Below, in pieces: positions 33,985-61,522 of a stretch of DNA of 64,000 nt (position 1 is its first letter; each line of letters starts with the position of its first letter). Source of the stretch: Potamilus streckersoni (taxonomy: Eukaryota). The position numbers and the translations under genes were made by a program. Below the pieces are notes generated by a model that was not told where the DNA came from, searched no databases, and was given only the letters and a program-made list of their open reading frames with translations. Location: NCBI GenBank assembly GCA_016746295.1, contig JAEAOA010001935.1:356430-420429 (forward strand), read 5' to 3'.

Positions 33985-34021
<37 letters not shown>

Positions 34022-35544: not shown

Positions 35545-35700
35545 ATGTGGATATTTTATGCCATATCCATAGCATTCGACATATCCATAGTATTTGACAT
35601 ATCCATAGCATTCGACATATCCATAGTATTAGACATATCCATAGCATTCGACATATCCATAGCATTCGACATATTCATAGCATTCGACATATTCATAGCA
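35545..35700. repeat. 21-bp tandem repeat (atccatagcattcgacatat[c/t]), about 8 copies
   Basis: Direct read. Confidence 0.85.
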
Positions 35701-35861
35701 TTCGACATATTAAGAAAAACAAGTTTACCACCAACCCAGTGTTTTGCAGTAATGCTTATTCCCTGAATGTGTATTTAACAAAACTGCTGTTGCTAGCAGA
35801 AAAATGATAACCATAAGCTGAGATGAACACAGAGTTATGTAACAATAAGTCATATATTCAC

Positions 35862-39834: not shown

Positions 39835-40068
39835 TGTTGTTGTTGGGCTTAACGCCATTTTTCAGCACACGATAGGCTATTCATGGCGGCCAGTATTAAT
39901 GGTGGAGGAAGAAACCGGGAAATCACCGGAAAGAACCACAGACTCATGAGAAGCTACTGGCAAGCTTTCTCACATATCCACATTATCCGAATCCTAGACT
40001 CGAACACACGCAGAGGTGAGATGGCAGTGATCCGTAACGGACAGCGTTTTAGACCACTCGGCCCATCA
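39835..40068 (-). mobile_element. SINE family B copy with a 13-bp target-site duplication atctacaatctgt
   Basis: Direct repeat atctacaatctgt immediately flanking both ends (39821-39833 and 40071-40083). Confidence 0.8.
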
Positions 40069-40441
40069 TCTACAATCTGTAGTGGACACTTAATCCCTTG
40101 CCTCATGTCCATGTTCACTGAAATTTGCAATATGTGTACCAATCATCTGATGACTGATGCCATTTCTAATAAGTCAGTCATTTTAAGATGTCACCCATAA
40201 TGCTCTCTACCAAACGTTGTGTTATCAAAGGAATGCTGATGGCAGGAAGCAGAAGAACAAAGCTTCTCTAGAACATGGTGTGGTACCTCACTTGAAGACC
40301 TTTCTGAGTACCATTCTAAGATTTTTCATCTCCATATCTGACTTGCAAAATAATTCACAAAAAAACCCCTAAAATTTCATTTGTTAGAGCATAAAACAAT
40401 ACATGACATGAATGCCATACTAGTTTTTTTCAAAAACTTAC

Positions 40442-40594
40442 CTTTATTATCTTCCTGGCATGGTAACAATTTCACTCTTTTGGAATTCATAGATACGGAC
40501 ATATAGCCTGGCTCTATTTCAATCTCTGGCAAACTTTCAGGTGATGAAGGTCTTTTTCTAGGTCTTCCAACACTTCGCTTATTTCCTGTTTCAT
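40442..40594 (-). CDS. Internal coding exon (minus strand) with an AT-hook: (D)ETGNKRSVGRPRKRPSSPESLPEIEIEPGYMSVSMNSKRVKLLPCQEDNK
   Basis: Acceptor ttccacacag|AT and donor AAAG|gtaagtt; 153 nt (2+150+1) open; GRPRKRP AT-hook core; paralogous exon at 45692-45543. Confidence 0.6.
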
Positions 40595-40786
40595 CTGTGT
40601 GGAAGAGACATAACAGTTCTGGGGTTAATTAACAGTTAATTCAGTAATCAAATGAAAAATGAAGCGCATACAAACTTTTGACTATAGAGTGCATTTAAGA
40701 TCATTTGCCAGAAAGTCTTCAATGTTTACATGTGTAAATAACTTAGTGTAGTTTGCCAACAAATTGTTTCCAAAATATGTAATTGT

Positions 40787-41092
40787 GTGTATGTGAGTGT
40801 TTTGGAGTTTTAATGCAGCTTTAAAATTTACATATTTATTGCTATGATGTCCAAAAAGTGGCAGTTAATAGTGATGTCTAGCAATGGGGCATCATACTGC
40901 TTACATGCAGCATCCACCCAGACACATTATCCTGACACCTGGCCAAACACTAACCTCTTAATGATGAGCACCAAGCGAGGCAACTAATAGTACCATTTTT
41001 AATAACTCTTTGGTATGATATGGTTAGGGTCAAAACCATTACGTCCGACATCTGAGGTGGATACCCTAACCACATAGGCCACCAGAGCAGTC
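40787..41092 (-). mobile_element. SINE family A copy inside duplication unit A (paralogous copy at 45878-46201 in unit B, so its insertion predates the duplication)
   Basis: Collinear with the other family A copies; present at the equivalent position of both duplication units. Confidence 0.7.
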
Positions 41093-43070
41093 AATTTAAC
41101 AAAATAAGGTCAAGACAACACTTAGCTATAGCAAGGACTGTGGAACCAGCACCTGATTGAATGTGGTATGTGATATGTTTTTCAAATACTAACATCTGAG
41201 CAAGGCAGCTACTAGTACCATTTTTATAAATCAATTGCATGACATGGCTGATGTTCGAAACAATGACCTACCGCATCTGAAGTGGATATTCTAACCAATT
41301 AGAATATTGATTTGATTTAAGAAGAAATGGACGGACATAACCACTTATTTGAAGTGGATCTGAGAAGAAAAAGTATGCATAAGATAAAAAAAATACTTGG
41401 GTTAACTTGGGATTAAGAAAATCTGACACAGCACGGTGTTATATTTTCATGCTTACAATGGTAACATATCAAATCTTGAGTGCCAGCTTTTGAGTAAAAT
41501 TGTTTGACACATGGATGTTTACGATCAAAATTGGATTAATTCATCCATATGTGAAAAACGGCATGGTATCTCAGTTCATAGGAGAAATTAAATGGCTCAT
41601 AATGTTATGAAACAATGATATCAGATTTTAATGGAACCCAAAAATGATTAGGAGCAGCATCTTTGAAGATTCATTATAATTCAGATGATTTGGTATAGAA
41701 TAATTTTTGCATATAATGGTGGCATTGGGGATTCAATATATCAATTTGGATTTGTGGATATTTCTTCCTACAAGGTTCTGAAAAGCTTGAGTTTCACAGA
41801 AAAATGCCTTTTTGTAAACAACTGATGAAACATCTGGCTTTCAAATTCCTGCTCCAACCATACCCAATGGCATACATTTTTAATACCTCTCTTGTTATCT
41901 TCAGAATTCTTATTTGCTCTTTCAAATATGTAGCTCACCACCAGAATGATGCTGCTTCTTATATATGATCATAATTAGGACTAATTAGGTGAAAACGGTT
42001 CTGAATGAATTCAACCTGCACTCTGGTGGCAAAATCGCAGGGCACACCAACAGAAAACAACCCCTACCATTTTTCCCCTGTAAATTTATTTAAATCTTTG
42101 TACTACACCTTTATTTTAAAAAAGTCTCATGTATGTGAAAACATGTCTTTGTTAATCACTAATTTTGGGTCTGGTTCGGTGATACAAATGTAGAAAATAT
42201 GTAAGTACCATGACTGAATAATTAACATCAGGATCATTGAAAAGCTGATGACCATAAACTGATACATGTTTATGAGGTCTCTAAATGATCAATTACGACA
42301 AGGAGAAAGCAGAAATAATAAGTCATAAGTGTCAAAACCCTCCAAAGAGAGACCAATCTGGTCTGATATGAATTTCATTAAGCAGATGAGAATAAAATCA
42401 CTTTTTAAAGCTAAAGTAAGCAAATTACATGTGTAACATTTTTGCTTTTGGAGGCTGGATTTACAAGGTAAGGATGATCTGATATATTTTGAATAAGGAA
42501 TTTTCCTAGCAAAGCACCAACAAAGTTTTCTAAGTCTAGATATAATAGGTACAAAAAATATTGCTAAAAATAAAAAAATCTCTTTTGTACAAAAATTTGT
42601 TAACAATGACATTGAAAGTGCAACAAAAGAAAATACAAAAGCTATTTGAGCTTGAAAATGAAGTCAATGCAACCTACTTTTAGTGTGGTTGAATTACACC
42701 CACTGACAGACACCAACATAACAATTTTCATGTGCAGGTGAAAATGGATCTAGGATAGTGACGGTGTAATGATTCATCTTGAATCTAAGTAAATGAACAA
42801 ATGCACAGACAAAATGTAAATCATAACTTTGTTGATGAGGGATAAAATTCTTAAGGTGGTGACAAGCTCAGCCGCCAATATAGCCGCTGAACAGAATAAT
42901 CCAACATAATGACACAAATTACTGCAACTCGAAAGCTACACTGCTTTTAATTTTTGCATTTTCGTATGCTGTTTGAATTTAAGTATAAATTTTGATTCCT
43001 GAGTCTACTGACCATTATTTTTTACTTCTGAGCCTAAAAATCTAAAAAAAATGAAAATTTGAAATCATAC

Positions 43071-43196
43071 CCCTGTTCTGGTTCTTGTTGTCTTGCCCAC
43101 TACCTGGACTACCTGCTGGTGACTTAATGCTTTTCTCTGCCACAACAGATGATTTAACATCATTATCCTTCTCAGCTTGTGCCTGTGAGGCATGTT
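43071..43196 (-). CDS. Internal coding exon (minus strand): (E)HASQAQAEKDNDVKSSVVAEKSIKSPAGSPGSGQDNKNQNR
   Basis: Acceptor tcaacag|AA and donor AGGG|gtatga; 126 nt (2+123+1) open; phase-compatible with exon 45692-45543 upstream (G|AA = Glu) and exon 40594-40442 downstream (G|AT = Asp); paralogous exon at 58128-58003. Confidence 0.55.
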
Positions 43197-43419
43197 CTGT
43201 TGACATGAAAATAAAATATAAATACTGCATTGCTTATGAAATTAGCATCTTACATCCATATCAGCTACAGTACACAGAGATAGACTAACCATTATTCATT
43301 TGTGCGAGTGTAGTTGTCATCTAATTGTTCATCACTATACAATGTAATATCCAAGCATAACAAGCATGGGTCTGCACTCCAGTGTATTATTACTTCCTGC
43401 AAGGCCTTTGAAGATGGAG

Positions 43420-43565
43420 TAAAATATACCAGGTAATTTACTTATCTGGCAATGTGAACCCCAATCAGGTAATTTACCTATCTGGCCATGTGGACCCCAA
43501 TCAGGTAATTTACCTATCCAGCCATGTGGACCCCAATCAGGTAATTTACTTATCTGGCTAAGCAG
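43420..43565. repeat. 36-bp tandem repeat (caggtaatttacctatccagccatgtggaccccaat), 4 copies; a paralogous array sits at 58400-58545
   Basis: Direct read; each unit contains a CAG|GTAATT / AG|GTAAAT splice-donor-like motif on both strands. Confidence 0.8.
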
Positions 43566-43664
43566 ACACCAATCAGAGTGAGTAATGCCTGATGGAATTA
43601 ATACCTGTTGAATGAAATAAAAGAACAGTCTGAACCATTCCAATATATGTCTCAAAATTACATT

Positions 43665-44500
43665 GTACATCACTCTTCACAAACACAAATACAGCATGGT
43701 CCATCAGCAATATGAATGTACATTGTACATCACTCTTCACAAGCACAAATGCAGCATGGTCCATCAGCAATATGAATGTACATTGTACATGATATGAATG
43801 TACATTGTACATCACTCTTCACAAGCACAAATGCAGCATGGTCCATCAGCAATATGAATGTACATTGTACATGATATGAATGTACATTGTACATCACTCT
43901 TCACAAGCACAAATGCAGCATGGTCCATCAGCAATATGAATGTACATTGTACATGATATGAATGTACACTGTACATCACTCTTCACAAGCACAAATACAG
44001 CATGGTCTATCAGCAATATGAATGTACATTGTACATGATATGAATGTACACTGTACATCACTCTTCACAAGCACAAATACAGCATGGTCCATCAGCAATA
44101 TGAATGTACATTGTACATGATATGAATGTACACTGTACATCACTCTTCACAAACACAAATGCAGCATGGTCTATCAGCAATATGAATGTACATTGTACAT
44201 GATATGAATGTACACTGTACATCACTCTTCACAAGCACAAATACAGCAAGGTCCATCAGCAATATGAATGTACATTGTACATGATATGAATGTACACTGT
44301 ACATCACTCTTCACAAGCACAAATACAGCATGGTCCATCAGCAATATGAATGTACATTGTACATGATATGAATGTACACTGTACATCACTCTTCACAAGC
44401 ACAAATACAGCATGGTCCATCAGCAATATGAATGTACATTGTACATGATATGAATGTACACTGTACACCACTCTTCACAAGCACAAATACAGCATGGTCC
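43665..44500. repeat. ~82-bp minisatellite (…atcactcttcacaagcacaaatgcagcatggtccatcagcaatatgaatgtacattgtacatgatatgaatgtacattgtac…), about 10 copies; absent from duplication unit B
   Basis: Period of about 80 bp read from recurring 'cactcttcaca'. Confidence 0.85.
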
Positions 44501-45099
44501 ATCAGTAATGTCATAAAACATGTTTGGGTCATCATCTACTTATATACATATAAATGTGCAGGCCAAATTTCATTTGCAACAGAGTTAAAAATGAAGTCCA
44601 AAGATCTGGACAAATTTTCAAAATTTATATAATGGCCTGAAAATCTAATCTGATAATCTACTACAAACTTCTAGGGATGGCACAATCCATCCAAAGAGGT
44701 GATTAATATGACAGAATTTTGTTCAAGATAGATCAAAATATGGCTGCAAAAAAAAGCATACAATGTCACTAACAATGTTTATAATGTAATATCAAAACTG
44801 GATTGCTCAAACTTTTAAGCCTCCAAAGTAACAAAAAAATCTGTCCCAAATATTGACAAAATTCAAAATCCTGTCCTCAGTACAGAAAAAAAAAAAAACT
44901 GTCAAATGTATCCCATTTCTGGTATGTCAGTCATTTTAAGCTGCCACCCATAATACTTTCTTCCAAATTAGTACGAAATTGGGGCCGAGATTTTGAGAAG
45001 TCATTTAAAAATGGACTAATAAACAGATACATCACACACAGAAGATGCAGTGCCCTATTGTAAAGATCATATGGGATCAAAAGAATGCTGATGGCAGGA

Positions 45100-45350
45100 A
45101 ACAGTTGTTATGGGGTTTAATGACATTTTTCAGTACAAGATAGTTTATAAATGGAGGCCAGCATAAATGGTGAAGAAAGAACCGGGGAAAACCCCTGAAA
45201 GAACAACCAACACACGAGAAACTACTTGCATGCTCTCTCATGTACATATATTGCTGAGCCGGAGACTCGATCCCATGCAGACAGATGTGAGATGACAGTG
45301 ACATATAACGGTGAGTACTTTAAACCACTCGGCCACTTGGGACCTTACTG
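45100..45350 (-). mobile_element. SINE family B copy inserted into duplication unit B after the duplication
   Basis: Absent at the orthologous point of unit A (40225: ggcaggaagcagaagaac continuous); flanked by ggaaacag/ggaagcag-type short direct repeats. Confidence 0.7.
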
Positions 45351-45542
45351 GAAGCAGAAGAACAAAGGTTCTGGAGAATGTAGTGTGGTACCTCACTTGC
45401 AGACCGTTCTGTGTAACATTCTAAGATTTATCATCCCCATATCTGACTTGCAAAATAATTCATAAAATAAACTAAATTTCATTTCTTAGAATGTAAAGCA
45501 TAACATGACATGAATGCCACACTAGTTTTTTCATCAACTTAC

Positions 45543-45692
45543 CTTTATCTTCCTGGCTTGGTAACAATTTCACTCTTCTGAAATTCATAGACATGGGCAT
45601 GTAGCCTGGCTCTATTTCAATCTCTGGCAAACTTTCAGGTGATGAAGGTCTTTTTCTAGGTCTTCCAACACTTCGCTTATTTCCTGTTTCAT
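45543..45692 (-). CDS. Internal coding exon (minus strand), paralogue of 40594-40442 with an AT-hook: (D)ETGNKRSVGRPRKRPSSPESLPEIEIEPGYMPMSMNFRRVKLLPSQEDK
   Basis: Same acceptor and donor as its paralogue; 150 nt (2+147+1) open; one codon shorter. Confidence 0.5.
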
Positions 45693-45877
45693 CTGTGTGG
45701 AAGAGACATCATAACAGTTCTGGGGTTAATTAACAGTTAATTCAGTAATCAAATGAAAAATGAAGCGCATACAAACTTTTGACTAAAGAGTGCATTTAAG
45801 ATCATTTGCCAGCAAGTCTTCAATGTTTACATGTGTAAATGACTTAGTGTAGTTTGCCAACAAATTGTTTCCAAAAT

Positions 45878-46201
45878 CAGTAATGTGTGTGTGCAAGATT
45901 TGGATTTTTAATACAGCTTTAAGAAATTATCCAGCTATTTTGCAATGATGACTGCAAAGTTGCAGTTAATAGTGATGTCTAGCAATACTGCATCATGCTA
46001 CATACATGCAACATCATGTTTCACACAGTCACATTATCCTGACACCAGGACAAACACTAACTTCTTAATGCTGAGCACCAAGTAAGGCAGTTACTAGTAC
46101 CATTTTTTTAAAAATCAATTGCATGACATAGCTGATGTTTGAAACCATGACCTCCCACATCTGAGGTGGATACTCTAACCACTTAGGCCACCAGAGCAGT
46201 C
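45878..46201 (-). mobile_element. SINE family A copy in duplication unit B
   Basis: Paralogous to 40787-41092. Confidence 0.7.
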
Positions 46202-46639
46202 AATTTAACAAAATAAGATCAAGACATCATTTAACTGTAGCAAGGACTGTGGGAACCAACACCTGAATGAACAGAAAATAAAGGTGGAATGCAATACGTT
46301 TTCAAGCCAATAACGAAGACACTTTTCTACAAGAGGAATCATGCACATCTGGTGCAGACAACATAGCAGACTGTATTTGGGCTGTAACACGGGAGTCAGA
46401 CAGGAATCTTGTTCTTGCAGTTCTAGAGGAAAGAATCATATGGCTTGGACAAATGATTGTATTCCAGGAAGATAGGCAATTAAATAGTTGTTGACATTGC
46501 ATCATTTATATTTAACCCCATGTTGATATGACCATCGATTTAGAACAAACAGCAATAAGAAGATTCTGAAGATGGCTGCTGGTGTCCATTAGAATGTCTC
46601 AGCATTTTCATCCAGGACAAGCTTACAGTGAATTTGTTC

Positions 46640-47040
46640 AAGGCAATTCTTAGAAGTATTTTAGGAGGAGTAGTGATAACAAGGTACAGTGAATGTATTC
46701 ATGGTAAATCTTCCAAGCATTTAAGGAGGAGAAGTGATAGCAAGGTACAGTGAATGAATGCATGGTAAATCTTCCAAGCATTTTAGGAGGAGAAGTGATA
46801 GCAAGGTACAGTGAATGAATGCATGGTAAATCTTCCAAGCATTTTAGGAGGAGAAGTGATAACAAGGTACAGTGAATGTATTCATGGTAAATCTTCCAAG
46901 CATTTAAGGAGGAGAAGTGATAGCAAGGTACAGTGAATGTATTCATGGTAAATATTCCAAGCGTTTTAGTAGGAGTAGAGATAGCAAGGTACAGTGAATG
47001 TATTCATGGTAAATCTTCCAAGCATTTTAGGAGGAGTAGT
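46640..47040. repeat. 60-bp minisatellite (aggagaagtgatagcaaggtacagtgaatg[aa/ta]t[g/t]catggtaaatcttccaagcatttt), about 6.5 copies
   Basis: Direct read. Confidence 0.85.
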
Positions 47041-50000
47041 GATAGAAAACTAATGGGCATGCGGATGTCAGGCCATTCCACAATATCTTCCTGCTTATGA
47101 CCAATGCGTGAAAATGAAAACATTTTGAGTATTTTCAAATATAAATCAGTTTATCATAAATTTCACCAATCTTCCAATCCAAAGTTTGTTTGGAAGTAAC
47201 TGATTTGTTAAAAGAGCATTCTGACGTAAATCATTCTTTGAAATAAAACAGCATTCAAATATTCCCTTTAGAATCAAGAAGTACCACCCTTAACTCAGCC
47301 AATAAAGTCGCTCTCAGTTACAATCTTTGTCCAGCGTGCTCCAAAACTAATGATGTGATACATTTGACAAATTCCGTCAGTGACTAATCTAACAACAACA
47401 TTTACATGTGGTACAAAAATTGATTTAAGAAGAAATGGACGGACATAACCACGTATTTGAAGTGGATCTGAGAAGAAAAAGTATGCATAAGATAAAAATA
47501 AGACTTGGGTGAACTTGAGATTAAGAAAATCTGACACATATGGTGTTAGATTTTCATGTTTACAATGGTAACATTAAATCTTGAGTGCCAATTTTTGAGT
47601 AAAATTGGTTGACACATGGATTTTCATTATCTAAATTGGAATAATTCATAAATATGTGAAAAACGGCATGGTATCTCAGTTCATAGGAGAAATTAAATGG
47701 CTCATAATGTTATGAAACAAGGATATCAGATTTTAATGGAACCCAAAAATGTTTAGGACCAGCATCTTTGAAGAGTCATTATAATTCAGATGATTTGGCA
47801 TAGAATACTTTTTGCATGTAATGGCAGCATTGGGGCTTCAATAAATCAATTTGAATTTGTGGATATTCATTCCCACAGGCTCCTGCAATGCATGCCTTTC
47901 ACACAAAGATACCTTTTTGTAAACAACTGATGAAACAGTTGGCCATTAAATTCCTGCCCCAAACATACCCAACAGCATACATTAGTACCTCTCTTGATAT
48001 CTTTGGAATTCTCATTTCCTCTTTCAAGTATATAGCTCACCACCATAATGATAGGACTAACTAGGTGAAAATGGTTCTCAGAGATCTCAAAAACGCTTAA
48101 TTACGTGTACTTGGACGCAAATATTTTATTGGGATTCAGAAAATCACCCACACTGGAGTCCTCCGAACGCATGTTTTTGTGGCAAGGAGGAAACTTTTGT
48201 GGCAAAATAAATATGTTCTCTAATCACTATGAAAACTGAAGCAATGCTTTTATTTTAGTTTGTTGCTGACTTTTTTTATGAAAGGTGCATGTGTTATTGA
48301 AGGCGCTGCTATAGGTTCCCTTTGAATGACAAAACAAATACCCACTTGCTATTGCTGCAGCAACATCAAATGAATTGTAGAACATTCACACAATTTTTTA
48401 AAATAATTTCCTTCAGAGGTAATCAGTTTTCATTGAAGTTGCAGAAAAACTTTTTTGGTTGTTTTTTTTCTTTATTTTTTTTTAAAATTGCTATTGTGTG
48501 GTCGACTGTAGTCATTTCACGTTTCCGCCCTCAGAGGTGGTCGATTGTAGCTAGTTAGTTGCATGGCTAGTTTGATTATATTACAGCATACATTATCAAA
48601 GATATCAGCATAAGCAGATTATAACATAACAAATAAAATTTAGGTTAGTTGGTCAATATCAAATAAGGATTTATTTATGTAACAATTGATTCCAGTTCAT
48701 TTTTATATCCATATTTGTGGCTTCCTGTCATTGTGCCTTTGAATTTCTCCACTCCAAACTCAAGACTGTATATACCATTTTTATCAGCCAAAATGTTGTA
48801 GCCAAATATATGGCCAGATGGTATATTTTGTTGTCAATACAGTCAAACCCGGTTATCTCGATTACGTCGGGGGTGTAAAAAAATCGTCGACATAACCGGG
48901 TCCCGAGATATCCGGGTTCATAAAAACAGGTAATTTTAAAAAAGTCCTTGAGCATTACTCCCGTCTCTTGCTGGTGTTTATTGGAATCCCCTCCCACTGC
49001 ATGTTACAATAAAATAAACAAAACACTTAATTGATAATAAAATGAAATGAACTAACCTGGTGTTTTTATCATTTATTCCTTTTTTATCATCATAAGTAAT
49101 TTATTAAAGAAAAAATATATGAACTCCTTATATCACATGTAGCGTATGCATCCATTACTGTAGTGTGCATCACTTATATCAGATAACACACGACGCATTT
49201 TTATAATCAATGTGAATATTGAAAAACAAATCATGTATGGTTGTACTCAGAGGTTTAAATATGTTATCAGATTGAAAAATGGATCAAAGAATATCACAAA
49301 CGAGAGAGTGAGAGAGAAACATCCACCAATTGCTTTCAGGCACCCGCCATTCACCCGTAACGCGGTGTTAGGTGCAAAATAACCAAGATTGTATTATATC
49401 CAGGTTAATATATGACAGTATCTCGCAGATAAAGATCAATAAATGTTTTTGAAAATACATGTATATGTACATTGACTGTGAGTGCAAATGGCCCTCCTTT
49501 CGCTAGTATGGGTTACAAAGAGTATTTATTAAAGCAAGTTAATGTTGAGTAGACTATTTACCCCACTGGCATCAATGCGAGTTTGTATCAATTATGATTC
49601 CTGATGGCAAATAAATAGATGCATGGGTGGGGAATAAACACATCCGTTGGCGAGCAGTAAACTAATTCTTTGAACTTACCGGCAGGATATCAAATACAAA
49701 GGTTATTTTATTGCAAAGCAAACCGACCCTGGAAACCGACTTTTGATTCTTTCAAGTGTGCCGATTCTTTTTTTTCTTTTCTGTTGGTTTTTTTTTTTTT
49801 TTGCCAACTTGGGTTTGCCTTTACTGGTATTCACAGGAATTTTGAAAATAAATTAAAACAATGGAAGCCAATTTTTCTGCCCGACTTAAATAAGTTATAT
49901 TACAAATAAGAAAACAAAACAAAATTAAGAAGACCTCAAGCATGAGAACTAAATTATGGGGCCTCGACTGCTATTGTATAGAAGCCAAGTGCCTGAGATT

Positions 50001-50125
50001 ATCCATTGGCATGCATATATATGAGCATATATATAAGGTGATATTCTGCCTAGAAATTAATCTGTTCTGTTTATTTTCTGTTGACAAGTACATGTATATG
50101 CTGTTTCATGAGAGAGAAAAAAAAA

Positions 50126-51026
50126 ATGTTCCAAAAGAGAAAGCTTTCAAACCAAAACATTGAACTGAAGTATAAAATTTTGCTACAACTTGAAAAAGGC
50201 GAAAAGTGTGTTGATTTGGCAAAAAGTACAACATTCCATCAAACACTATTACCGGCTGGAAGAAAAATGCTGATAAAATCAAAACTACTTATGAACTTGG
50301 ACAATTTGGTCCCGATAGAAAGAAAATGCGTTCCGCAAAGTTCGATGATGTCGACGAGGCAACACTAAAATGGTTTAAAAACGTCCGTGCCGAAAATATC
50401 CCAGTAGACGGCCCTCGTATCCAGCAACAGGCTGAGAAATTTGCAAAAGACTTGGGACATGAAACATGGAAAGCATCACATGGCTGGTTAGATCATTTCA
50501 AACAGCGCAATAATATATGTTTTAAAACCGTGTGTGGAGAGAGAGCATCTGTTTCAGATGTGGCTGTTAAGGAATGGCATAAAGAAGTTTTGCCAAAAAT
50601 TTTAGACAAGTTTAAGCCATGCGATATATACAATGCTGATGAAATGGGGCTAGTTTGGCAATGTCTGCCTAACAAGACGATGGATTTCAAAGGAAACAAA
50701 TGCCATGGAGGAAAAAAATCCAAAGAGAGAGTAACTTTGCTTTTGGCCGGAAATATGGATGGAAGTGACAAGATCAAGCCATTAATAATAGGAAAATCAG
50801 AAAATCCAAGATGCTTCAAAAACCTGAATAGGTCTTCTCTCCCAGTTGACTATAAAAGCCAGTCAAATAGCTGGATGACAGGTGACATCTTTACCAGCTG
50901 GTTACGCAAGTTAGATCGCCACTTAGAGTTTGAAAAACGAAAGATCGCATTGATAATAGGCAACTGACGTGCTCACCCACATGTAGAAGGGTTACAAGCA
51001 ATCACAGTGTATTTTTTTCCTCCCAA
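50126..51026 (+). pseudogene. pogo/Tigger transposase, N-terminal two-thirds (CENP-B/psq HTH: MFQKRKLSNQNIELKYKILLQLEKGEKCVDLAKS..; HTH_Tnp_Tc5 and start of the DDE domain: ...ATLKWFKNVRAENIPVDGPRIQQQAEKFAKDLGHETWKASHGWLDHFKQRNNI...ERVTLLLAGNMDGSDKIKPLIIGKSENPRCFKN...RKIALIIGN*RAHPHVEGLQAITVYFFPPN), inactivated
   Basis: Frameshift near 50225 between ORFs 50081-50368 and 50326-50967; in-frame TGA at 50965-50967 inside the conserved LLLDNxxAHP motif; coding sequence cut at 51026/51027 by the hAT insertion. Confidence 0.75.
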
Positions 51027-51382
51027 CAGGGTTCCTGCAGTCTTAACCAAAACAAATTCCATGACTTTTCCAAAACTTTTCCAGAGACATTCAACAAAAC
51101 TCAAGGACCGCGCTCTCTTGCATTATCAAGTAAAATGAATATAAAGAATGACATCTTTCAAAGAAAATAACAAATAAGTTAACAACAAATATTTTTAATA
51201 TGTACATTTTAAATTTACCTGGGTTTGCACACATTGACTTCATGCAGTAATTCATGTTATAATCCAATTTTCAATGTAATTTGTATTCAAAAGTAAAAGA
51301 GAAACAATTCTATGTAGTTTATGTATGTGTTCATATTTACAATATTAACAAAACATGTCACTTTCCAGTTGCTTTCTTGTAT

Positions 51383-53707
51383 TTAGAGAGAAGCCAACTT
51401 TTTCTGCTCTATCTCCTTTTCAATGTCCTTTAGAGACTCTTGTTTCACTTTTGCAGTCTTTCGGAGAGAATTGGACGCAGTTAACAGGCTTAGGTTATTG
51501 TCCTTTTCAGCTTGTTCAGCATTTTCATCTGCTAATTTGAGCAATTGCTGGATGTCATCTATTAATCTAATTCTTTTATTTAAGATGTCACCCAGCTCAA
51601 GATCTGCTTTTCGTTTTCTGCTCCTCTCACACTCATCCCTCTTTTTCTTTTCCTCATCCAAGTACTGTCTGTATGCATGTCTAGCATTTGAAGCATAGGT
51701 TAACATTTCTTTACTAATATTTACATTTTCAATGCCTCCTACACTCCGAATACCATCAATAATGATTCTTCTTGAAATGAGAGACAACTGCTTTTGGTTA
51801 TCTCTTATGGCTTCTTTGTTCATGGATAATCCTCGTTCAACATCTGCCTGGCCATGAGACAGAGTTAGAAGATGTTTTACAACTGGCCACAAGACAGCAT
51901 ATTCCTTTTTGTTTGCCATCAAAGAATGAAAAAATGAATCTAAGCGGTCTTTCTGTCTGGAGAACTGAGCAAATTTCACAGAGTCTTCCAATTTCAAACA
52001 ATTTTCCAAAAAGGATTTGTAGTTTTTAGCCAGGGCATCACATTGGTTTGGATCTATTCTTCCATTGTTGACTAGAATTTTGACCAGTGAGTGGAATGAC
52101 TGAATGCTTGTCTTTATATCCTTCATCATCATCTCTGGGTTTAAGCATGTCATATGTCTTACAAGTGCAAAAGTCACTGGTGATTTTGTCAGCAGTTTTG
52201 TGACAGCAGCTTGGAGGAATTTCCTGCAATCAATACGGAATGACAAAATGTCCCTATCTGTCAATTTCCCTGATTTTTTTAAGTCTGCAATCACAGTCAT
52301 TGTCACAAAGCCAATTTCAATCATTGCAGGGTCTTTAAGATGTTTGCAATTTGTTAGATCCAATTTTATGAGCTTTGATGCCTCTGTGATAAGGTCCAGA
52401 TGATCTTGAGCTACAAATCGCTCCATAAGACCCCTGATCATTTTGAAAATGTCTTCGGCAAGGAAAGGCAGCAATGGAGTGTCTCCTTGAAATTCCTGTA
52501 AAAATGGCTCAAACTCTCTAGCCACTGAAAGGAAAAACTGTGCTTGAGGAATGAAGAGATGAGACTTAATCACTTCCTTTAGACTCTCAAATGATTTTAA
52601 TTTTGGGTGCTTTTTAAGCGACTCAATATATGTTGCTAGGTATGGAAGGAGGGATATGACTTTCTCTACAACTGTGATATTCTCAAGCCACCTGTGCTTA
52701 CAGAATTTTGGTGGCAGCTCCTTGTTACCAGATACTTTTTGATAGTCCTCTATTCTGGCTGGAGAATCTTTAAAGAAGTAATAGAGATTGCTTTGTGTCT
52801 CCTCCAGATTCCACTCTGTGGCAGTGCAACCATGCCTGAAAGCATTATGAATTAAATGCAGGCTGCAAGATTCTGTTGGCAACAACGACTTTCCAGGATT
52901 TAAACGATTAATCTCTGCATTCAACATGTCAAAGGTTTTCCAGTTAACATTAGGTCCATCCATTGAAATTTGGAGGAGGTTCCTGGTGCCAAGATCTTGG
53001 ATGATTGGACACAACTTGCCAAAAAGATCATCTGCAGTGGCATGTCCCAAAAACTCAGATGTTAAAAATCTTGTCTGCACTCTTTCTGCACCCTGTTCCC
53101 AAAATCTGACATGAATGTCACATTGCTTTTGGCGCAATTGTTTATTCAAACTTTCATCGAACTGCAAGACATATCCATCACACTTGCGTATGCTATCTTT
53201 TAAGGTTGATGTAAAGTATGGGGATAGGCCATGAATAGCAATATAACTTGTTTTGTCATAACCGCAAGTGAATTTGTTTGCAATTGCACTGTCTGGAAAC
53301 ATTAGTGAAAAAACTTGTGAAATTTCCTCATTGGAATTAAAGGAGCTGTGTGTATTCACTGTCCTTGATGTCCACAAAATTTCTGCCTTTAATACATCAT
53401 TTGATGATGTATATGACGTTAATGTTGGGGCAGGCTTTGGCGTACCTTTAGGTAATGGTGAGGCTAAAGGTGAAATAAAACCAAAGAGTGTGTTGTTCTG
53501 AGCAGATTTCATTATTTTACAATTCTGCACATGCTTCTTGCTGGTGGAATGACTTTTGAGGGCAGCTTCTCCCATATTTGCAATATCTATAATTTTGCTA
53601 CAAGCTCTGCATTTAGCAGTCCTTGGGTCTGAAGCATTCTTCTCCGCCCATTTTTCATAGCTTGGGTTAGTCAGCCATCTGTTATTGAATGTGCACATGC
53701 CAGGCAT
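51383..53707 (-). CDS. hAT-family transposase, 774 aa, intronless and intact: N-terminal CxxC...H...H zinc finger (KCRACSKIIDIANMGEAALKSHSTSKKH), DUF4371-type core (..LQFDESLNKQLRQKQCDIHVRFWEQGAERVQTRFLTSEFLGHATADDLFGKLCPIIQDLGTRNLLQISMDGPNVNWK..), C-terminal hAT dimerisation motif (..LWPVVKHLLTLSHGQADVERGLSMNKEAI..) and a coiled-coil tail
   Basis: Single 2,325-nt ORF on the minus strand with no stops; motif pattern FDES…/…VERxxS characteristic of hAT (Ac/Buster/Charlie-like) transposases; lies centrally within an element with TIRs. Confidence 0.8.
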   Translation of the reverse strand: MPGMCTFNNRWLTNPSYEKWAEKNASDPRTAKCRACSKIIDIANMGEAALKSHSTSKKHVQNCKIMKSAQNNTLFGFISPLASPLPKGTPKPAPTLTSYTSSNDVLKAEILWTSRTVNTHSSFNSNEEISQVFSLMFPDSAIANKFTCGYDKTSYIAIHGLSPYFTSTLKDSIRKCDGYVLQFDESLNKQLRQKQCDIHVRFWEQGAERVQTRFLTSEFLGHATADDLFGKLCPIIQDLGTRNLLQISMDGPNVNWKTFDMLNAEINRLNPGKSLLPTESCSLHLIHNAFRHGCTATEWNLEETQSNLYYFFKDSPARIEDYQKVSGNKELPPKFCKHRWLENITVVEKVISLLPYLATYIESLKKHPKLKSFESLKEVIKSHLFIPQAQFFLSVAREFEPFLQEFQGDTPLLPFLAEDIFKMIRGLMERFVAQDHLDLITEASKLIKLDLTNCKHLKDPAMIEIGFVTMTVIADLKKSGKLTDRDILSFRIDCRKFLQAAVTKLLTKSPVTFALVRHMTCLNPEMMMKDIKTSIQSFHSLVKILVNNGRIDPNQCDALAKNYKSFLENCLKLEDSVKFAQFSRQKDRLDSFFHSLMANKKEYAVLWPVVKHLLTLSHGQADVERGLSMNKEAIRDNQKQLSLISRRIIIDGIRSVGGIENVNISKEMLTYASNARHAYRQYLDEEKKKRDECERSRKRKADLELGDILNKRIRLIDDIQQLLKLADENAEQAEKDNNLSLLTASNSLRKTAKVKQESLKDIEKEIEQKKLASL

Positions 53708-54514
53708 GTTGGACTAAACCTAAAGCAATAAAAAATGAAAGATTTTCAGATTTAGCTGTCATTATGGGATATTGTGTATTTTATTATGTATTCAGAGTTT
53801 TCTAACGGTCCAATGTTCATTAAGTAATTATTTTTATAATCTTTTGGCCAGACTTAGAATCTAAGATTTAGTTAATATAATATTATGTAGTCTTGGTTAT
53901 TTGAAATTAAAATACAATTTTCAGACAATGACAATTCTTTTCTTTAACTTTAACAAAAATTCATTAAGTATCCTAGTAACAGCAACACTGAAAATGCCAT
54001 CAAAGTTTACCAGATACAGAAAAATGTTTGATTAAAGTTAAACTATAATGGTAGTAAATATGTTTTATCCTAACATGGCAACCCTCTTGAAAAATGGAAG
54101 TCAAATTTCCCACACTGTAATATTACTGGAATTTTGACTGAAGTCTTCTTGCAATTTTTTTTTTATTTTGAATTCAAATATTTTTCTTTCTTCAATACAC
54201 GATCTATTCTAGTATTTATTTACTATAAATATTTATTTTTATTGGGGTTTTGGAAAATCGGGTGAATTTAATTGGGAGACAAAGACAGGTCTAATATTAA
54301 AACAGTTCTCTTAAATTTTATTCAGTATGGTTGGCTGGTCAACTAAAAACAGCTTCCGATTGAAAACTATAGTTTTTTAATATTCTGAAATGAATGTAAA
54401 GTAACTGCCCAAAATAAGAATATGAAATTTACAATAACAATTATAATCAGGTCGTACCGTACCATCTGCCATAATAAAAGAATGAATATGCCATATGAGA
54501 TGTTACGACAGACC

Positions 54515-54960
54515 CGAAAAAAAAGAGAAATATAAACGAAACCAAAATTAGTGTTTACCATGTGCATTAGATCGAGAAAATAAGTGACTTTCTCGGAAGA
54601 AATTAACTTTGTTTTGATATATCGTGAAGTGTTAATTGCTCAAAATGGTGCAGCAAACAACATTAATTTCCCTATGGAACTACAAAGTAAATCACGTGAG
54701 ATATACTGTTAGGGAACTTACTCTTGTTATACAAAATTAAGAGATAAATATAAATGAAACCAAATTAGTACTTACCTTGTACCTTAGATTGAAGAAATAA
54801 CAGACATTTTGGGAAGAAATTGGCTTCCTCTTGATAGACCTTCAAGCGGTTTTTGCTCAAAGCGGCGCGGCTGTTCATTTGAATTTTCCAATCGAACTAC
54901 ACCGGAAATCACGTGATACTACTGTTAGGGTCACTTACTCTTGTTATATTTAATGAAACC
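54515..54960. repeat. Subterminal ~220-bp tandem repeat (2 diverged copies) in the 5' non-coding region of the hAT element (upstream of the transposase ORF)
   Basis: 54515-54735 vs 54736-54960 share gaga(a/t)aaatataaa(c/t)gaaaccaaa(a)ttagt..ttacc.tg..cttagat.ga(g/a)aaataa...ttt.ggaagaaatt..ct...ttgata.a.c.t.aag.g......gctcaaa..g..g..c..tt.a..ttcc.at.gaactaca..g.aaatcacgtga.a.tactgttaggg.acttactcttgttata; shorter 25-bp direct repeats aaattccatgacttttccaaaactt at 51052-51076 and 55043-55067. Confidence 0.7.
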
Positions 54961-55169
54961 ATTTATCGATCGTAATTTTATCGTGTTTTATTTAATCGGT
55001 ACTCGTTGAAATTTGGAGTAATCAATTTTTTAACTCCATTGTCAGAAATTCCATGACTTTTCCAAAACTTAGCAAGGTTTTGACAAATTCCATAAATTTT
55101 CAAGGCCCTTGAAATTTATTTTCTAATTTCCAAAACTTTTCCAGGATTCCATGACCCGCGGGAACCCTG

Positions 55170-55777
55170 TCCCAATGCTACCAGTAAACTTCAGCCACGC
55201 GACCAAGGAATAATTCAGGCTTTTAAAATCCAATATCGGAAAGCTTTAGTTTGCAATTATTTGCTTGCAGTTGAGGAAAAGCGATCATATAAACCAACTC
55301 TGCTAGACGCCATCATGTATGCCCGTGCAGCTTGGAACAGTGTATCGCCGAAAACCATTAAAAACTGCTGGTTCCATTGTATTCTTCCGGAAATTTCTGA
55401 TGAAGAATTTCACCAGCAGTGTTTAATTGCACAAGAAATTAAAGAGCCTCAAACAGAAATAGGTCTTGAAGCGATGGCTGATGAGATTGCGGACTCCATA
55501 GGCATTTCATTTTCACGTGGATGATAATGCCAATGCCTATGGTGAACTTACTGATGAGGAAATAATTCAATCGGTGACAATGAAGCAGATACGATCATGC
55601 AAGCAAGATGATGATGATGATTAGCCTATCACTATCCCAAGCTACAGTGAAATGGCTGAATGCATTCAAAAAATGAAATTGTTTGTGGCGAGTGTCGACG
55701 GTGCCGAGCATATGTATGAAAACGTAAGTGCTTTTGAATCGTTCGTTACAAATCAGCACCGGAGTAAACAAATGTAG
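55170..55777 (+). pseudogene. pogo/Tigger transposase, C-terminal third (..ATSKLQPRDQGIIQAFKIQYRKALVCNYLLAVEEKRSYKPTLLDAIMYARAAWNSVSPKTIKNCWFHCILPEI..., then after a frameshift ..DDNANAYGELTDEEIIQSV...PITIPSYSEMAECIQKMKLFVASVDGAEHMYENVSAFESFV)
   Basis: Continues the pogo frame interrupted at 51026; conserved LQPLDQGII / DAI..A..AW..V...I.NCF motifs; at least one further frameshift near 55500-55525; stop TAG at 55774-55776. Confidence 0.7.
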
Positions 55778-57199
55778 ACTGATATTACTTCATATTTTCT
55801 ACAAAAATAATGCAGTGCACATTATGATATGTTTATGTACTTGTGTGTTTTATAGATGTATAGATTCAAAATGAAAAAAGTATTCATTTTTTATTCATAT
55901 ATAGTATGCGTTTATTGTACATGTACGTGTAGGTAATTTTACCATATATTTTTGTATTTCCACTACATTATGTTCAGTTTATAATTCCTAGATATTTTGA
56001 AAATATTGCTGACATGTTTGGCTATTTTGTCATAAAATGCAATACAATAAATCGTCATGATATTAGGTGCAAATGGAACAATTTCATCACCTGAATGAAT
56101 ATTCAGCCGACCAGCACTTTTCCGTCTGCACATTGATTATTAATGTGTACATGTACATAATATTTCATTACTTGTATCTCCTTGATTGTAGTTTCTTGTA
56201 TATGTACTTCGGAACATAATTCATATCTTAAATGTACCTTAAGAAATAAAAGGGAAATGATAAAATACACATGTAGCTAACATCTAAGATTCTGTGTTTT
56301 CGTAAAATAAAGTTACATTGTAATTTGTGCACACTCTTGTCTTTGTGAATTTCTGAATATTTTATGTAGTGAACATGATATATTCTTAATAAACTAATCA
56401 ATTAAGCTACTTTTACAAATCAAAAATAGAAAGAATATGAAATAAACATGTGACTACTGCCAAAACAGACCAAAATTGTTCCTGAAAATCTATCGCTTTT
56501 GCTGACTATTTATTGTACAATTTCTGTGAGATTGACGTTAAAAAGTTGCATTTCGTCGAATTAAGCGGGTCCACATGTTACTTCGGACCGAAACTTATGC
56601 CCGACATAACCGGGTTATCGACTTAACAGAGGTCGAGATAAACGGGTAAAAAATAGCATAACAGAAAAGAATTTTTTCGGGACCGGACTCAAACGCTCGA
56701 CATAAGCGGGTTGTCGAGATAACCGAGGTCAAGATAAGTGGGTTTGGCTGTATGTAAAACATAATTGCAATTTGCGACATTGGCAAAGCCCAGCGCAATC
56801 ACTGTTATTGATTTCATTTCCGGTTATTGCCGTATAAATATTGCCTGCGAACTCAAAATCAAGAGACTTGGACAATATGTTATTTGCAAATTTAGACAAG
56901 TGTTTTGTAGTTAAACGTTAAAATGTTGAATATTTCAATGAGATTCAGAACTGTGCTAAAGTTGCTATAACTGATAGTTCGGATGCGACCGTAGCCAAGT
57001 GTAAGAAAGTACGTGATTTCTGGCTATGTGGGGACTGCAACTTTTGCTGGTGGGACTCTAATTTTTACCAAATTAGGAGTCCATTTTCCTAGTTTTAAAA
57101 TCCTAGTGAGACCTCTGGTTCTGAATATATTTCAACCTGTACTCTGTTGGCAAAATCACAGGGCACACCAATGGAAAAAATTAACCCATACCATTTTTT

Positions 57200-57203
57200 C
57201 CCA

Positions 57204-57250
<47 letters not shown>
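57200..57250. repeat. (TA)n microsatellite
   Basis: Direct read. Confidence 0.95.
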
Positions 57251-58002
57251 CAGAAATTCATTACAAAAAGAAGTCTCATGCCTATGAAATAATGTCTTTG
57301 CTAATCACTGATTTTGGGTCATACAAATGTAGAAAATATGGAAGTACCATGACTGAATAATTAACATCAGGATCATTGAAAAGCTGATGACCATAAACTG
57401 ATACATGTTTACGAGGTCTCTAAATGATCAATTATGATATAATAGGTACAAAAAATATTGCTAAAAATAAAAAAGTCACTTTTGTACAAATATTAGTTAA
57501 CAATGAACTAATGTGGTAAAGTAACTAAGATATGTATCTACACGTCAAAATCCAAGACAAGAAGGTGCAACAAAACAAAATACAAAAGCTATTTGAGCTT
57601 GAAAATGAAGTCAATGCAACCTACTTTTAGTGTGGTTGAATTACACCCACTGACAGACACCAGCATAACAATTTTCATGTGTAGGTGAAACTGTATCTAG
57701 GATAGTGATGGTGCAATGATTCATCTTGTAACTAAGTAAATGCATAAATGCAATATCCAATCATGACTTTGTTGATGAGGGATACAATTCTTAAGGTGGT
57801 GACAAGCTTAGCCACCAATATAGCTAATTAGTATAGCCAGTGTAGATCACAGATTATTTAGACTTGAAAGTTAAACTGCTTTTAGTTTTTGCATTTTCGT
57901 ATGCTGTTTGATTTTTTTTAAAAAATTTGATTCCTGAGTCTACTAACCATTATGTTTACTTCTGAGCCTAAAAATCTAAAAAATAAAAATTTGAAATCAT
58001 AC

Positions 58003-58128
58003 CCTTGTTCTGGTTCTTGTTGTCTTGCCCACTACCTGGACTACCTGCTGGTGACTTAATGCTTTTCTCTGCCATAACAAATGATTTAACATCATTATCC
58101 TTCTCAGCATGTGCCTGCGAGGCATTTT
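58003..58128 (-). CDS. Internal coding exon (minus strand), paralogue of 43196-43071: (E)NASQAHAEKDNDVKSFVMAEKSIKSPAGSPGSGQDNKNQNK
   Basis: Same acceptor tcaacag|AA and donor AAGGG|gtatga; 126 nt open; phase-compatible with exon 60052-59881 upstream (G|AA) and exon 45692-45543 downstream (G|AT). Confidence 0.5.
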
Positions 58129-59880
58129 CTGTTGACATGAAAATGAAATATAAATACTACATTGCTTATGAAATTAGCATCTTACATTCACATCAGCTTA
58201 AGTACACAGAGATAGACTAACCATTATTCATTTGTGAGAGTGTAGTTGTCATCTAATTGCTCATCACTATACAATGTAATATCCAAGCATAACAAGCATG
58301 GGTCTGCACTCCAGTGTGGTGTGTCTTTTTATATGTGATAGATTTATGATAGGCTGTATTATTACTTCCTGTAAGGCCTTTGAAGGTGGAGTAAAATATA
58401 CCAGGTAATTTACTTATTTGGCTATGCAGACCCCAGTCAGGTAATTTACCTATCCAGCCATGTGGACCCCAATCAGGTAATTTACCTATCCAGCCATGTG
58501 GACCCCAATCAGGTAATTTACCTATCCAGCTAAGTGGAACCCAATCAGAGAGAGTAATGTCTGATGGAATTAATACCTGCTGATTGAAGGAAACATACTA
58601 ATATACCAGTCTACTATTCCTTCTACATATAATGTTTCAAGCAAATAGGGTGGAACTTGATCTACTATCACATAATTAGTATGTTAAACATAAATACATT
58701 AACCAGAAATTCTCCTTCTGGACATTAATGTCTTTACCAACAGTTCTTTGTCACACACGGCATACAGCCAGAAAAATTTGGACTAGATTTGTTTGAAAAG
58801 CTCATATGCCCCATTACCCTACCTCAAAAGTCCCCAAAACAATGTTTTTATTGTATTTAAGATAATGTTGTAAAACATGTTTGGGTCATCATTTACTTAT
58901 ATATATAAATGTGCAGGCCAAGTTTCAATTGCAACAGAGTTAAAAATGAAGTCCAAAGATCTGGACAAATTTTCAAAATTTATATAATGGCCTGAAAATC
59001 TAATCTGATAATCTACAACAAACTTCTAGGGATGGCACAAAACATCCAACAAGGTGATTATTTTTACAGAATAATGTTTAAGATGGATCAAAACATGGCT
59101 GCAAAAAAAAAAAACATACTATGTCACTAACAATATTTATAATGGAAAATTAAAACTGGATTGCTGAAACTTTTAAGCATCAAAAGAGACAAAAAACTAT
59201 GTCCCAAATATTGACAAATTTGTCAAAATCCTGTCCTCAGTACACAAAAAAAACCTCAGAATCCTGTCCTCAGTACAAAAAAAGCTGTCAAATCAAGCCC
59301 TTATTACTGACAAAACTGTCAGACTCCATAGTCTGAACACATGATAAAGATTGCTAAAGATCATCAATGGCACAAAAATCTACACCTATACAAAAACATA
59401 CATATTATACCCATTTTGCCTAATTCATGCAGTTTCTACTTAAATCTTGATAGGCAATGTTTCTAGATATTTTAATGGCTTGTATACAAAATCTGGCTAT
59501 CTATATACAGTGAGAAATGTGCCTACTGAATTTTACCTGTCAGAGTTAGGCAATTTTTACATAATCATGCCAACAAGGTTCATAATGAAAGGTGCTAACA
59601 AGCTTCCCAATACAGATGTAGAGATGAAGAGGGACAAATTAAGATGCTCTCAATAGAGAAAACACAACAGAAACATCAAGAATAGATTAAATAATTGTTA
59701 ATACTTGCTTTCCCCTGCTACTTCTTGGTATATACTTTTCTTTAAACCTAGTACCTCTAAAAATATTTCCCTTATTTAAAACTTGAGTACAAAAATGCCA
59801 AAACATTTGCAACTGCAATGGTTTAGCATTGTAAACCTGCATCTTTCATCCCACCCACCCATTCAACCTCAGGTCAATAC

Positions 59881-60052
59881 CTATCAATTTAGTTTTCAGC
59901 TGCAAGTTTTCATTCTTCAGTTTCTCTATTTCATTTTTCAGATGTCGCTTTTTGAGCTCCTTGGCATATTTGTCCCTCTCTTTCTGAAGTTCTTCCAGTT
60001 CCCTCTGCAGCTGCTGGATTTCGTCATCTTCATCAAGACAAATGACCTCCAT
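59881..60052 (-). CDS. First coding exon (minus strand) with the start codon: MEVICLDEDDEIQQLQRELEELQKERDKYAKELKKRHLKNEIEKLKNENLQLKTKLI(E); predicted coiled coil
   Basis: ATG at 60050-60052 in good Kozak context (acacaATGG) with an in-frame TAA 9 nt upstream; donor ATAG|gtattg at 59875-59880; heptad-like Leu/Glu/Lys pattern; phase (ends with 1 nt) matches the next exon; a possible 5'-UTR acceptor ctatttcag lies just upstream. Confidence 0.5.
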
Positions 60053-60769
60053 TGTGTTTTACACACTGCCTTCTTTACTTAACAGCTGAAATAGAACAAC
60101 ATGTCTATTCAGTACATGTGCATGCCTGTAAGAATTCTTTGATCCTATTACGGAGCAATAAAAAATAGGAACCTCAACAGATAAATGTAACATAAACAGA
60201 CCACCTTTTATAAAGCCAACCAAGGTGGCTTATCACACAGGTGTCCTTATCAATTAGGTGAATTTTACTAAGGACAAAATTGTAAATTATATGCTGTAAT
60301 GACCAATCTGAGGCTTATCTCTTTTCAGAAAGATCACTCAAGTGGTGGGACCACTGTAATTCTCATCCTATATTCAGCAACGTCTCCAGGACACACAATT
60401 ACATGAATCACCCACAAAAATACAAGCAAATACATAAAAATCAAAGACAGTCAATTTTCCATTTGCAAAATGTTTAACAATCATCAATGTTACTGAAGCT
60501 ATATCAGATCATGTATGTGCTAGTTGTGTCACAAAATACTGTTCCAATAAACAACTACAAGATTTATCTCATACATTATAAGTTTTTTATCATGCACACA
60601 AATGCCATAGTTGTGAAAATTGTGGAGAAATCACTGTATGCACTATTTAAATTCAATTAAAATTTAATTCTTTCTTGTGATAACAACACCACAACACAAA
60701 TATATAATATGAATATCATTGCAATTTGACTTAAACATTGCTTCTAAAACACTGATATATACACACACA

Positions 60770-60778
60770 CACACACAC

Positions 60779-60870
<92 letters not shown>
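60770..60870. repeat. Compound (AC)n(AT)n microsatellite; a second (AT)n at 61440-61520
   Basis: Direct read. Confidence 0.95.

Positions 60871-61438: not shown

Positions 61439-61522
<84 letters not shown>

Follow-up and report, generated by a model that had tools for sequence, protein, structure and literature searches.

Exons that were duplicated in tandem are a common feature of animal genes. According to a 2002 survey, in the form in which PMC9013439 cites it, approximately 10% of animal genes contain them, and duplications of this kind are often linked to mutually exclusive splicing (PMC6071210). Here, we describe a duplicated exon pair in a 64,000-nucleotide (nt) stretch of DNA from Potamilus streckersoni (assembly GCA_016746295.1, contig JAEAOA010001935.1, positions 356,430–420,429 of the forward strand), which is referred to below as the window and is numbered from its first letter. 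Two adjacent units, which we designate A and B, each carry two consecutive putative coding exons (A1 and A2, B1 and B2) of what appears to be one long minus-strand gene. The best explanation overall, to which we assign a probability of roughly 0.6, is an intragenic tandem duplication whose four exons would all be spliced in. The structural part of this account leaves very little room for doubt; it covers the duplication and its limits, the intact splice signals, the codon phases and the sequence in which the transposons inserted.

Duplicated units and their exons

A first-pass annotation of this DNA had proposed a tandem direct duplication of approximately 4.8 kb at 40130–59290 and a comparison of the 40–60-kb region with itself. 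Self-BLASTN and a repeat finder revealed that units A and B are adjacent, colinear, direct (head-to-tail) copies that share five blocks of 77–90% identity: (i) 40245–41161 with 45350–46271 (86.6%); (ii) 41312–41950 with 47420–48052 (88.9%); (iii) 41997–42298 with 57117–57437 (77%); (iv) 42539–43616 with 57436–58588 (83.5%); and (v) 44506–44893 with 58863–59253 (89.8%). The self-BLASTN E-values of these blocks range from 6e-73 down to 0, and the mismatch over the approximately 3,299 aligned columns (~3.3 kb) is 10.2%. The colinear blocks and boundary alignments delimit unit A to 40157–44909 (4,753 bp) and the insertion-enlarged unit B to 44910–59293 (14,384 bp), with a B/A size ratio of 3.03. 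The duplication thus extends from 40157 to 59293, and the earlier placement was correct to within approximately 30 bp. No third copy of the exon pair was found in the window by tBLASTN.

Both outer boundaries and the junction between the units can be read directly (slashes mark breakpoints and splice sites). On the left, homology starts at 40157, which is equivalent to 44910, and 40157–40214 match 44910–44967 at 84% in the boundary alignment. On the right, the sequence ...CTGTCAAAT ending at 59293 is the same as the sequence ending at approximately 44908. In a three-way comparison of the left flank, the junction and the right flank, the left part of the A/B junction (...CTGTCAAATGT/ATCCCATTTC..., 44900–44915) is the continuation of the end of unit B and its right part is the continuation of the start of unit A, with an ambiguity of at most 3 nt. 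Microhomology at the junction is therefore at most 3 nt, and no repeat is common to the two breakpoints.

The four exons, all on the minus strand, lie at equivalent positions of the two units and are present exactly as first annotated. Exon A1 (43071–43196, 126 nt) has the acceptor ttttattttcatgtcaacag/AA, the donor GG/gtatga and an open frame; exon A2 (40442–40594, 153 nt) has the acceptor tctcttccacacag/AT and the donor AAG/gtaagt, and both run from phase 1 to phase 1. Their paralogues are exon B1 (58003–58128, 126 nt), which differs from A1 by 6 substitutions, and exon B2 (45543–45692, 150 nt), which differs from A2 by 7 substitutions and one 3-nt deletion. All four exons have an AG acceptor with a pyrimidine tract (exon 1 ...tcatgtcaacag/, exon 2 ...tctcttccacacag/) and a GT donor (/gtatga and /gtaagt, respectively), and within the 20 nt on the intron side of each splice site the copies differ at only 1–2 positions. 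The first 2 nt of each exon finish a codon, and 1 nt is left over at its end. Counted from the first base, the third frame is open in all four exons, and A1 and B1 are open in the first frame as well. A filter that demanded a pyrimidine content of at least 65% ahead of the AG, a GTRAG-like donor and an open frame of 60–400 nt was passed in unit A by A1 and A2 only and yielded no third exon inside the duplication unit. Elsewhere in the window this filter passes approximately one unrelated segment per 4–5 kb, and the result is supportive, not decisive.

Two exons that are single-copy in the window by self-BLASTN flank both units in compatible phases. The putative upstream exon (59881–60085, minus strand) contains a likely start codon (ATG at 60052–60050, context acacaATGg) and ends in phase 1 with 1 spare nt. 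The downstream exon (35862–36120, minus strand), recognized by its C2H2 zinc-finger motif (CNLCDFTCEYFLAVYNHLRKEH) and spliced translation, starts in phase 1 with 2 completing nt. Conceptual splicing of the ATG exon, B1, B2, A1, A2 and the zinc-finger exon gives an uninterrupted open reading frame (ORF) of 328 residues, and the open frames, splice signals and compatible phases that had been claimed for all four exons were borne out. The A pair only, the B pair only, the hybrid B1-A2 and neither pair also give in-frame products, as do two further patterns, a single duplicated exon and three of the four. Because all of these exons and the flanking exons are in one phase, every inclusion pattern that was translated stays in frame. 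Taken together, the signals and phases lead us to infer that the four segments are genuine exons and belong to one gene with the ATG exon and the zinc-finger exon.

Across the six frames of the window, the peptide KRSVGRPRKRP has just two occurrences, one in A2 and one in B2. It has a GRP core with Arg/Lys flanks, as in an AT-hook, so that the earlier claim of one AT-hook per pair holds by inspection of the motif only. Pfam models, AT_hook included, reported no match at E ≤ 10 to either of the 92-residue peptides; the motif is very short, and HMMER filters drop weak matches.

Divergence of the copies and use of the pairs

If the gene is transcribed as proposed, the spliceosome would by default recognize all four exons, because the splice signals of the copies are nearly identical, and the mRNA would carry an in-frame internal repeat of approximately 92 residues with two GRP (AT-hook-like) motifs. 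That both pairs enter at least a substantial fraction of transcripts is, judged from the sequence, an even bet.

The exon pairs differ by 13 substitutions in 276 nt (4.7%) and one 3-nt indel, versus 324 differing columns of 3,023 in the aligned intron sequence (10.7%; Fisher p = 8e-4); 27 indels separate A from B in total. Eleven of the 13 exonic changes, in 10 codons, are nonsynonymous and two are synonymous. The EDNK/EDK codon indel, the H/Q, S/F, V/M and R/K changes and the predominance of nonsynonymous substitutions, all pointed out earlier, are visible in the exon alignments. Nearly all exonic changes lie at the edges: a 54-residue core, AEKSIKSPAGSPGSGQDNKNQN(R/K)DETGNKRSVGRPRKRPSSPESLPEIEIEPGYM, which includes the GRP motif, has one conservative R/K change. 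In a neutral simulation run at the mean intronic rates (10.7% substitutions and 0.9 indel events per 100 bp), both copies kept splice dinucleotides, frame and ORF in 1.6% of trials. This hints that both copies have been maintained and weakly suggests selection on both.

Several observations weigh against joint use of the pairs. The ratio of nonsynonymous to synonymous divergence (dN/dS) is approximately 1.0–1.1 (NG86 dN = 0.050, dS = 0.046; 13 substitutions); values below approximately 0.4 are rejected, and so few changes give no tighter bound. The relaxed constraint suggested by the first-pass annotation fits both results. Conservation is also found outside the exons. Eight perfect runs of at least 60 nt were observed versus 0.4 expected, and five of the eight are purely intronic; among 140-nt windows that lie wholly in introns, 13.6% equal the exons in conservation; and the near-identical tract over exon 2 (40504–40770) reaches beyond it through approximately 176 nt of the upstream intron. 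The similarity of the exons may therefore stem from gene conversion and not from selection acting on both copies. In addition, the B1–B2 intron now holds 9 kb of transposon DNA, including an intact ORF on the same strand, a load that could disturb how the B pair is spliced. Protein searches, exact look-ups and metagenome scans matched no transcript, orthologue or second assembly.

The tract at 40504–40770 pairs with 45602–45871, and further near-perfect, gene-conversion-like tracts lie at 42203–42272, 42630–42715 and 44574–44661 and at their partners in unit B. The patchiness of the divergence suggests intermittent gene conversion between the units as its simplest reading; conserved intronic splicing elements may be an alternative source of the near-identical tracts. 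Intronic noncoding RNAs were considered as a cause of the conserved intron patches and rejected, as Rfam had no match anywhere in the window and none of its families accounts for these patches. If gene conversion has occurred, the argument from selection is weakened and the 10% divergence underestimates the age of the duplication.

The serious rival, which we consider unlikely, is that only one pair is used and the other consists of decaying pseudo-exons that survive by youth, chance or gene conversion. The dN/dS of approximately 1.0–1.1 and the 11 nonsynonymous changes among 13 are what it predicts, and substitutions at the exon edges reach the intronic level (approximately 12 in ~113 nt). 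The near-identical tracts outside the exons serve it as well, since conversion could explain the intact core, and the members of the B pair are separated by a 12.3-kb, transposon-loaded intron. Such decay has nevertheless left all eight splice dinucleotides, both frames and both ORFs intact, with a joint neutral probability of 0.016; the sole exonic indel is 3 nt long, whereas two thirds of the intronic indels are not multiples of 3, and the near-identical splice signals give the spliceosome no sequence reason to skip either pair. Alternative use of the pairs, as mutually exclusive two-exon cassettes or combinatorial cassettes that yield isoforms with slightly different single AT-hook modules, is decidedly improbable. 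Tandemly duplicated exons are frequently spliced in a mutually exclusive manner (PMC9013439, PMC6071210), and with a single phase class the reading frame is kept in A-only, B-only and hybrid B1-A2 mRNAs alike. It is also kept on joint inclusion, however, so that no frameshift or nonsense-mediated decay (NMD) filter would enforce exclusivity; the B2–A1 intron, at approximately 2.3 kb, imposes no steric block; and the window has no Rfam match. No docking/selector complementarity of at least 15 nt was found in the 24-kb pre-mRNA interval at 35.9–60.1 kb in a scan of perfect pairings only, which did not cover imperfect or G-U pairing; the longest perfect complement is 14 nt, which is approximately the chance level and is not common to both units. 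None of the three mechanisms that could enforce mutual exclusion, an NMD frame clash, a short-intron steric block or docking/selector pairing, was thus found here. A broader version is quite unlikely. In it, a young, still-homogenizing duplication would offer four same-phase exons as combinatorial or mutually exclusive two-exon cassettes, and the number of AT-hook modules per protein would range from zero through one (A, B or hybrid) to two; were it true, the locus would show regulated alternative splicing at an early point of its emergence from the duplication of an exon pair.

It is very improbable that the four segments are chance open frames with splice-like dinucleotides in a duplicated intron. 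No homologue was matched in protein searches, no Pfam domain was reported, and a loose filter that gives approximately one false positive per 4–5 kb in this AT-rich window leaves room for such frames. Yet the only two loci of unit A that pass this filter also have the exact phase that bridges the ATG exon and the zinc-finger exon, the product is hydrophilic and its KRSVGRPRKRP is typical of nuclear DNA-binding proteins, and frame, motif and splice sites are kept in both copies despite 10% background divergence. That the duplication is a falsely expanded repeat, an artefact of assembly, is barely credible. Nothing specific speaks for it beyond the fact that a region rich in minisatellites and transposons can mislead assemblers, whereas artefactual expansions give near-identical copies and these copies differ by approximately 10% and 27 indels. 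Each copy also has private insertions (the 9-kb stack with its target site duplication in B; the 82-bp array and 242 bp in A), and the junction is unique sequence. An intragenic duplication with all four exons spliced in remains our preferred reading.

Origin, later insertions and host gene

We propose a head-to-tail copying of a segment of approximately 3.5–4.75 kb in the 5′ part of the gene, one that contained two successive coding exons together with their introns. As the junction and the breakpoints have at most 3 nt in common, the mechanism would be homology-independent: end-joining or template switching during replication. Nonallelic homologous recombination between flanking repeats was considered and ruled out, since the 230-bp repeat copies near the breakpoints (39832–40063 and 45104–45334) lie on different sides of the start of homology and are non-equivalent, and none follows 59293. 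After the duplication, the copies would have drifted apart by approximately 10% and been partially and patchily re-homogenized, probably by gene conversion. The B1–B2 intron grew through the insertion of nested DNA transposons, and unit A acquired an expanded minisatellite array.

The 230-bp interspersed repeat family has a further copy at 12691–12921; the copies resemble short interspersed nuclear elements, and no Rfam match was found in the window. Identity is 94% between the copies at 39832 and 12691, whereas the copy at the A/B junction is only 73% identical to either.

Some repeats are shared by the units. A 36-bp minisatellite of 4.1 copies (43430–43576) has a counterpart in unit B (58402–58548) with the same unit and copy number according to TRF. 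An interspersed repeat of approximately 320 bp (40784–41092) likewise corresponds to 45884–46201 and has other copies in the window at 1872–2152, 24628–24945 and 34005–34323. Both of these repeats predate the duplication because each is present in both units. Other segments are private to one unit. The gain of an ~82-bp minisatellite in unit A, which had been noted before, is evident from the TRF array at 43710–44509 (9.8 copies, 98% matches) within the non-homologous block 43617–44505; the 82-bp unit matches neither unit B nor any other part of the window, and a search for an ancestral copy in unit B found none. Unit A also has a specific segment of 242 bp (42297–42538), which was either gained by A or lost from B. 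Specific to unit B are approximately 1.15 kb at 46272–47419, including a 61-bp minisatellite of 6.9 copies (46624–47045), and 382 bp at 44968–45349, which contain the diverged (73%) 230-bp repeat copy at 45104–45334.

The threefold size of unit B results mainly from a nested transposon stack, a B-specific insertion of 9,039 bp (48079–57117) with the termini CAGAG(A/G)TCTC. It is bounded by a 5-bp target site duplication (TSD), GTTCT, at 48074–48078 and 57118–57122, and the equivalent position in unit A (41998–42002) is an empty target site with a single GTTCT. The TSD in B and the empty site in A are direct proof that the stack arrived after the duplication, and they substantiate the proposal that unit B tripled (3.03-fold) through transposon insertions. 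Inside the insertion lies a degenerate pogo/Tigger-type transposase gene (50215–55521, plus strand) in two pieces, 50215–51026 and 55176–55521, with an in-frame stop and a frameshift (Pfam HTH_Tnp_Tc5, 7e-16; DDE_1, 4e-21 and 5e-14). The gene is split by a 4,143-bp element, and joining the pieces restores the frame ...FFPPN/ATSKLQPRDQGII.... Pogo/Tigger-type elements normally duplicate TA. The outer insertion has the 5-bp GTTCT TSD and the CAGAG(A/G)TCTC termini despite its pogo/Tigger-type DDE_1 gene, and no separate pogo termini were found within the outer 9 kb; the outer insertion is either a third nesting layer or an atypical element.

The inner, 4,143-bp element (51027–55169, minus strand) is apparently a complete hAT-type transposon. 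Its termini are CAGGGTTCC(T/C)GC, its 12-nt terminal inverted repeats (CAGGGTTCCTGC versus CAGGGTTCCCGC) match at 11 of 12 positions, and its TSD, TCCCAA (51021–51026 and 55170–55175), is 6 bp, not 8 bp, long as reconstructed from the interrupted pogo reading frame. A 25-nt direct repeat (51054–51078 and 55046–55070) was rejected as the TSD of this element, whose actual ends are at 51027 and 55169; the repeat lies subterminally. A DNA copy with 92.5% identity in GCA_013573275.1 (locus L001, 1–3171) ends at the inferred terminus 51027. The element contains an intact ORF of 776 codons (53713–51386) on the same strand as the host gene. This ORF had no match in Pfam or PDB sequence searches. The AlphaFold2 model of the protein (pLDDT 86.7) has a Hermes-type RNase-H fold with an inserted helical domain. 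Its 12 best PDB fold matches are all Hermes (E = 4e-10 to 3e-7, probability 1.00, target TM-score 0.53–0.67), so that the ORF is classified only by its predicted fold, since the sequence searches were empty. The protein belongs to a very large, animal-wide family with 10,533 cluster representatives at E ≤ 1e-3, including members from echinoderms, a hemichordate, molluscs, ticks, spiders and fishes; no Pfam model matches this family, and no member has a Pfam annotation on record. Conserved residues in the family are the acidic or aromatic D186, D252, W342 and E626, and the C-terminal motif SHGQADVERGLS corresponds to the family consensus SHGQAxVERGFS.

The window as a whole looks like part of a large animal genome: it is AT-rich (G+C of 30–39% per 2-kb segment), and minisatellites and interspersed repeats are abundant across it. 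C2H2 motifs are confined to its minus strand (35975–36040, 16000–16065 and 617–682). Together with the ATG exon at 60085–59881, they indicate one long, animal-type minus-strand gene, which would cover at least the stretch between 60.1 kb and 0.6 kb and would probably continue past the edge of the window. Its product would carry a coiled coil, AT-hook-like motifs and C2H2 zinc fingers. Neither the N-terminal exons, including the duplicated unit, nor the zinc-finger exons had a match at E ≤ 1e-3 in word-indexed protein searches. Since the database does contain animal proteins, these empty searches show that it includes no close annotated relative of the gene. No record was returned by exact look-ups of the ORF in the ATG exon, the two exon-2 ORFs or the transposase ORF, and wobble-masked patterns from exon 2 and exon 1 had no match in metagenome scans.

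A long open frame on the minus strand (23586–23095) is probably a large exon of the same gene; its product is rich in Ser, Glu, Arg and Lys, it appears internally repetitive by visual inspection only, and no homologues or domains were matched. A frameshifted fragment of a non-LTR (long terminal repeat) retrotransposon (31910–33714, minus strand; Pfam RVT_1, E = 1e-15) is intronic in this gene. The introns are unusually dense in minisatellites, with units of 16–90 bp, which the window scan located at 1455–2625, 4443–6037, 8690–9312, 16652–17021, 17373–17759, 23846–24318, 28598–28778, 30856–31114 and 35562–35710. Among these, the 41-bp array at 8690–9312 is perfectly homogeneous (15 copies, 100% matches), and the 35-bp array at 4443–6037 has 45 copies. 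Two long (TA)n microsatellites (60782–60869 and 61430–61520), approximately 550 bp apart, form a large inverted repeat directly upstream of the putative first coding exon.

Comparison with known systems

The Ac, hobo and Hermes transposons have termini that begin with CAGGG or CAGAG. The inner element of the stack in unit B resembles these hAT members in its CAGGG/CAGAG-type termini, its predicted Hermes fold and its C-terminal SHGQADVERGLS, which is similar to the hAT dimerization motif. It differs from them in having a 6-bp TSD instead of the usual 8 bp and a protein family without a Pfam match.

HMGA chromatin proteins have three AT-hooks. The predicted product of the locus is like HMGA in that a GRP core lies among basic residues in a disordered, hydrophilic segment; this motif would occur twice if both pairs were included. 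By contrast, the motif here is VGRPRKRP and not the canonical RGRP, with no Pfam AT_hook match reported, and the protein has a coiled coil and C2H2 zinc fingers and no relatives detected in the databases searched. If both pairs are expressed, a second AT-hook-like module was gained in one mutational step, which would be a textbook route to higher DNA-binding valency and new splice isoforms.

Mutually exclusive clusters such as those of Dscam1, tropomyosin and ATE1 (PMC6071210, PMC7797038) likewise originated by tandem duplication and consist of copies that are similar in length and sequence. Unlike in these clusters, the phases here permit joint inclusion, the intervening intron is long, no docking/selector complementarity was detected, and an exclusive choice would act on exon pairs.

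As in tandem exon duplications of animal genes, the copy is intragenic and head-to-tail and contains complete exons with their splice sites, and the paralogous exons are equal or nearly equal in length, are in the same phase and lie between single-copy exons. The locus departs from the typical case in that its unit holds two exons, so that the repeat is an exon pair, and in that it is young (~10% divergence), with breakpoints, empty sites and later insertions directly readable. With its breakpoints, the empty target site of the transposon stack and candidate tracts of gene conversion all open to view, it could be used to illustrate cleanly how exon duplications originate and age. Judged by its structure, the locus is a new instance of a common process and, given how frequent such duplications are in animal genes (PMC9013439), it leaves current understanding unchallenged.

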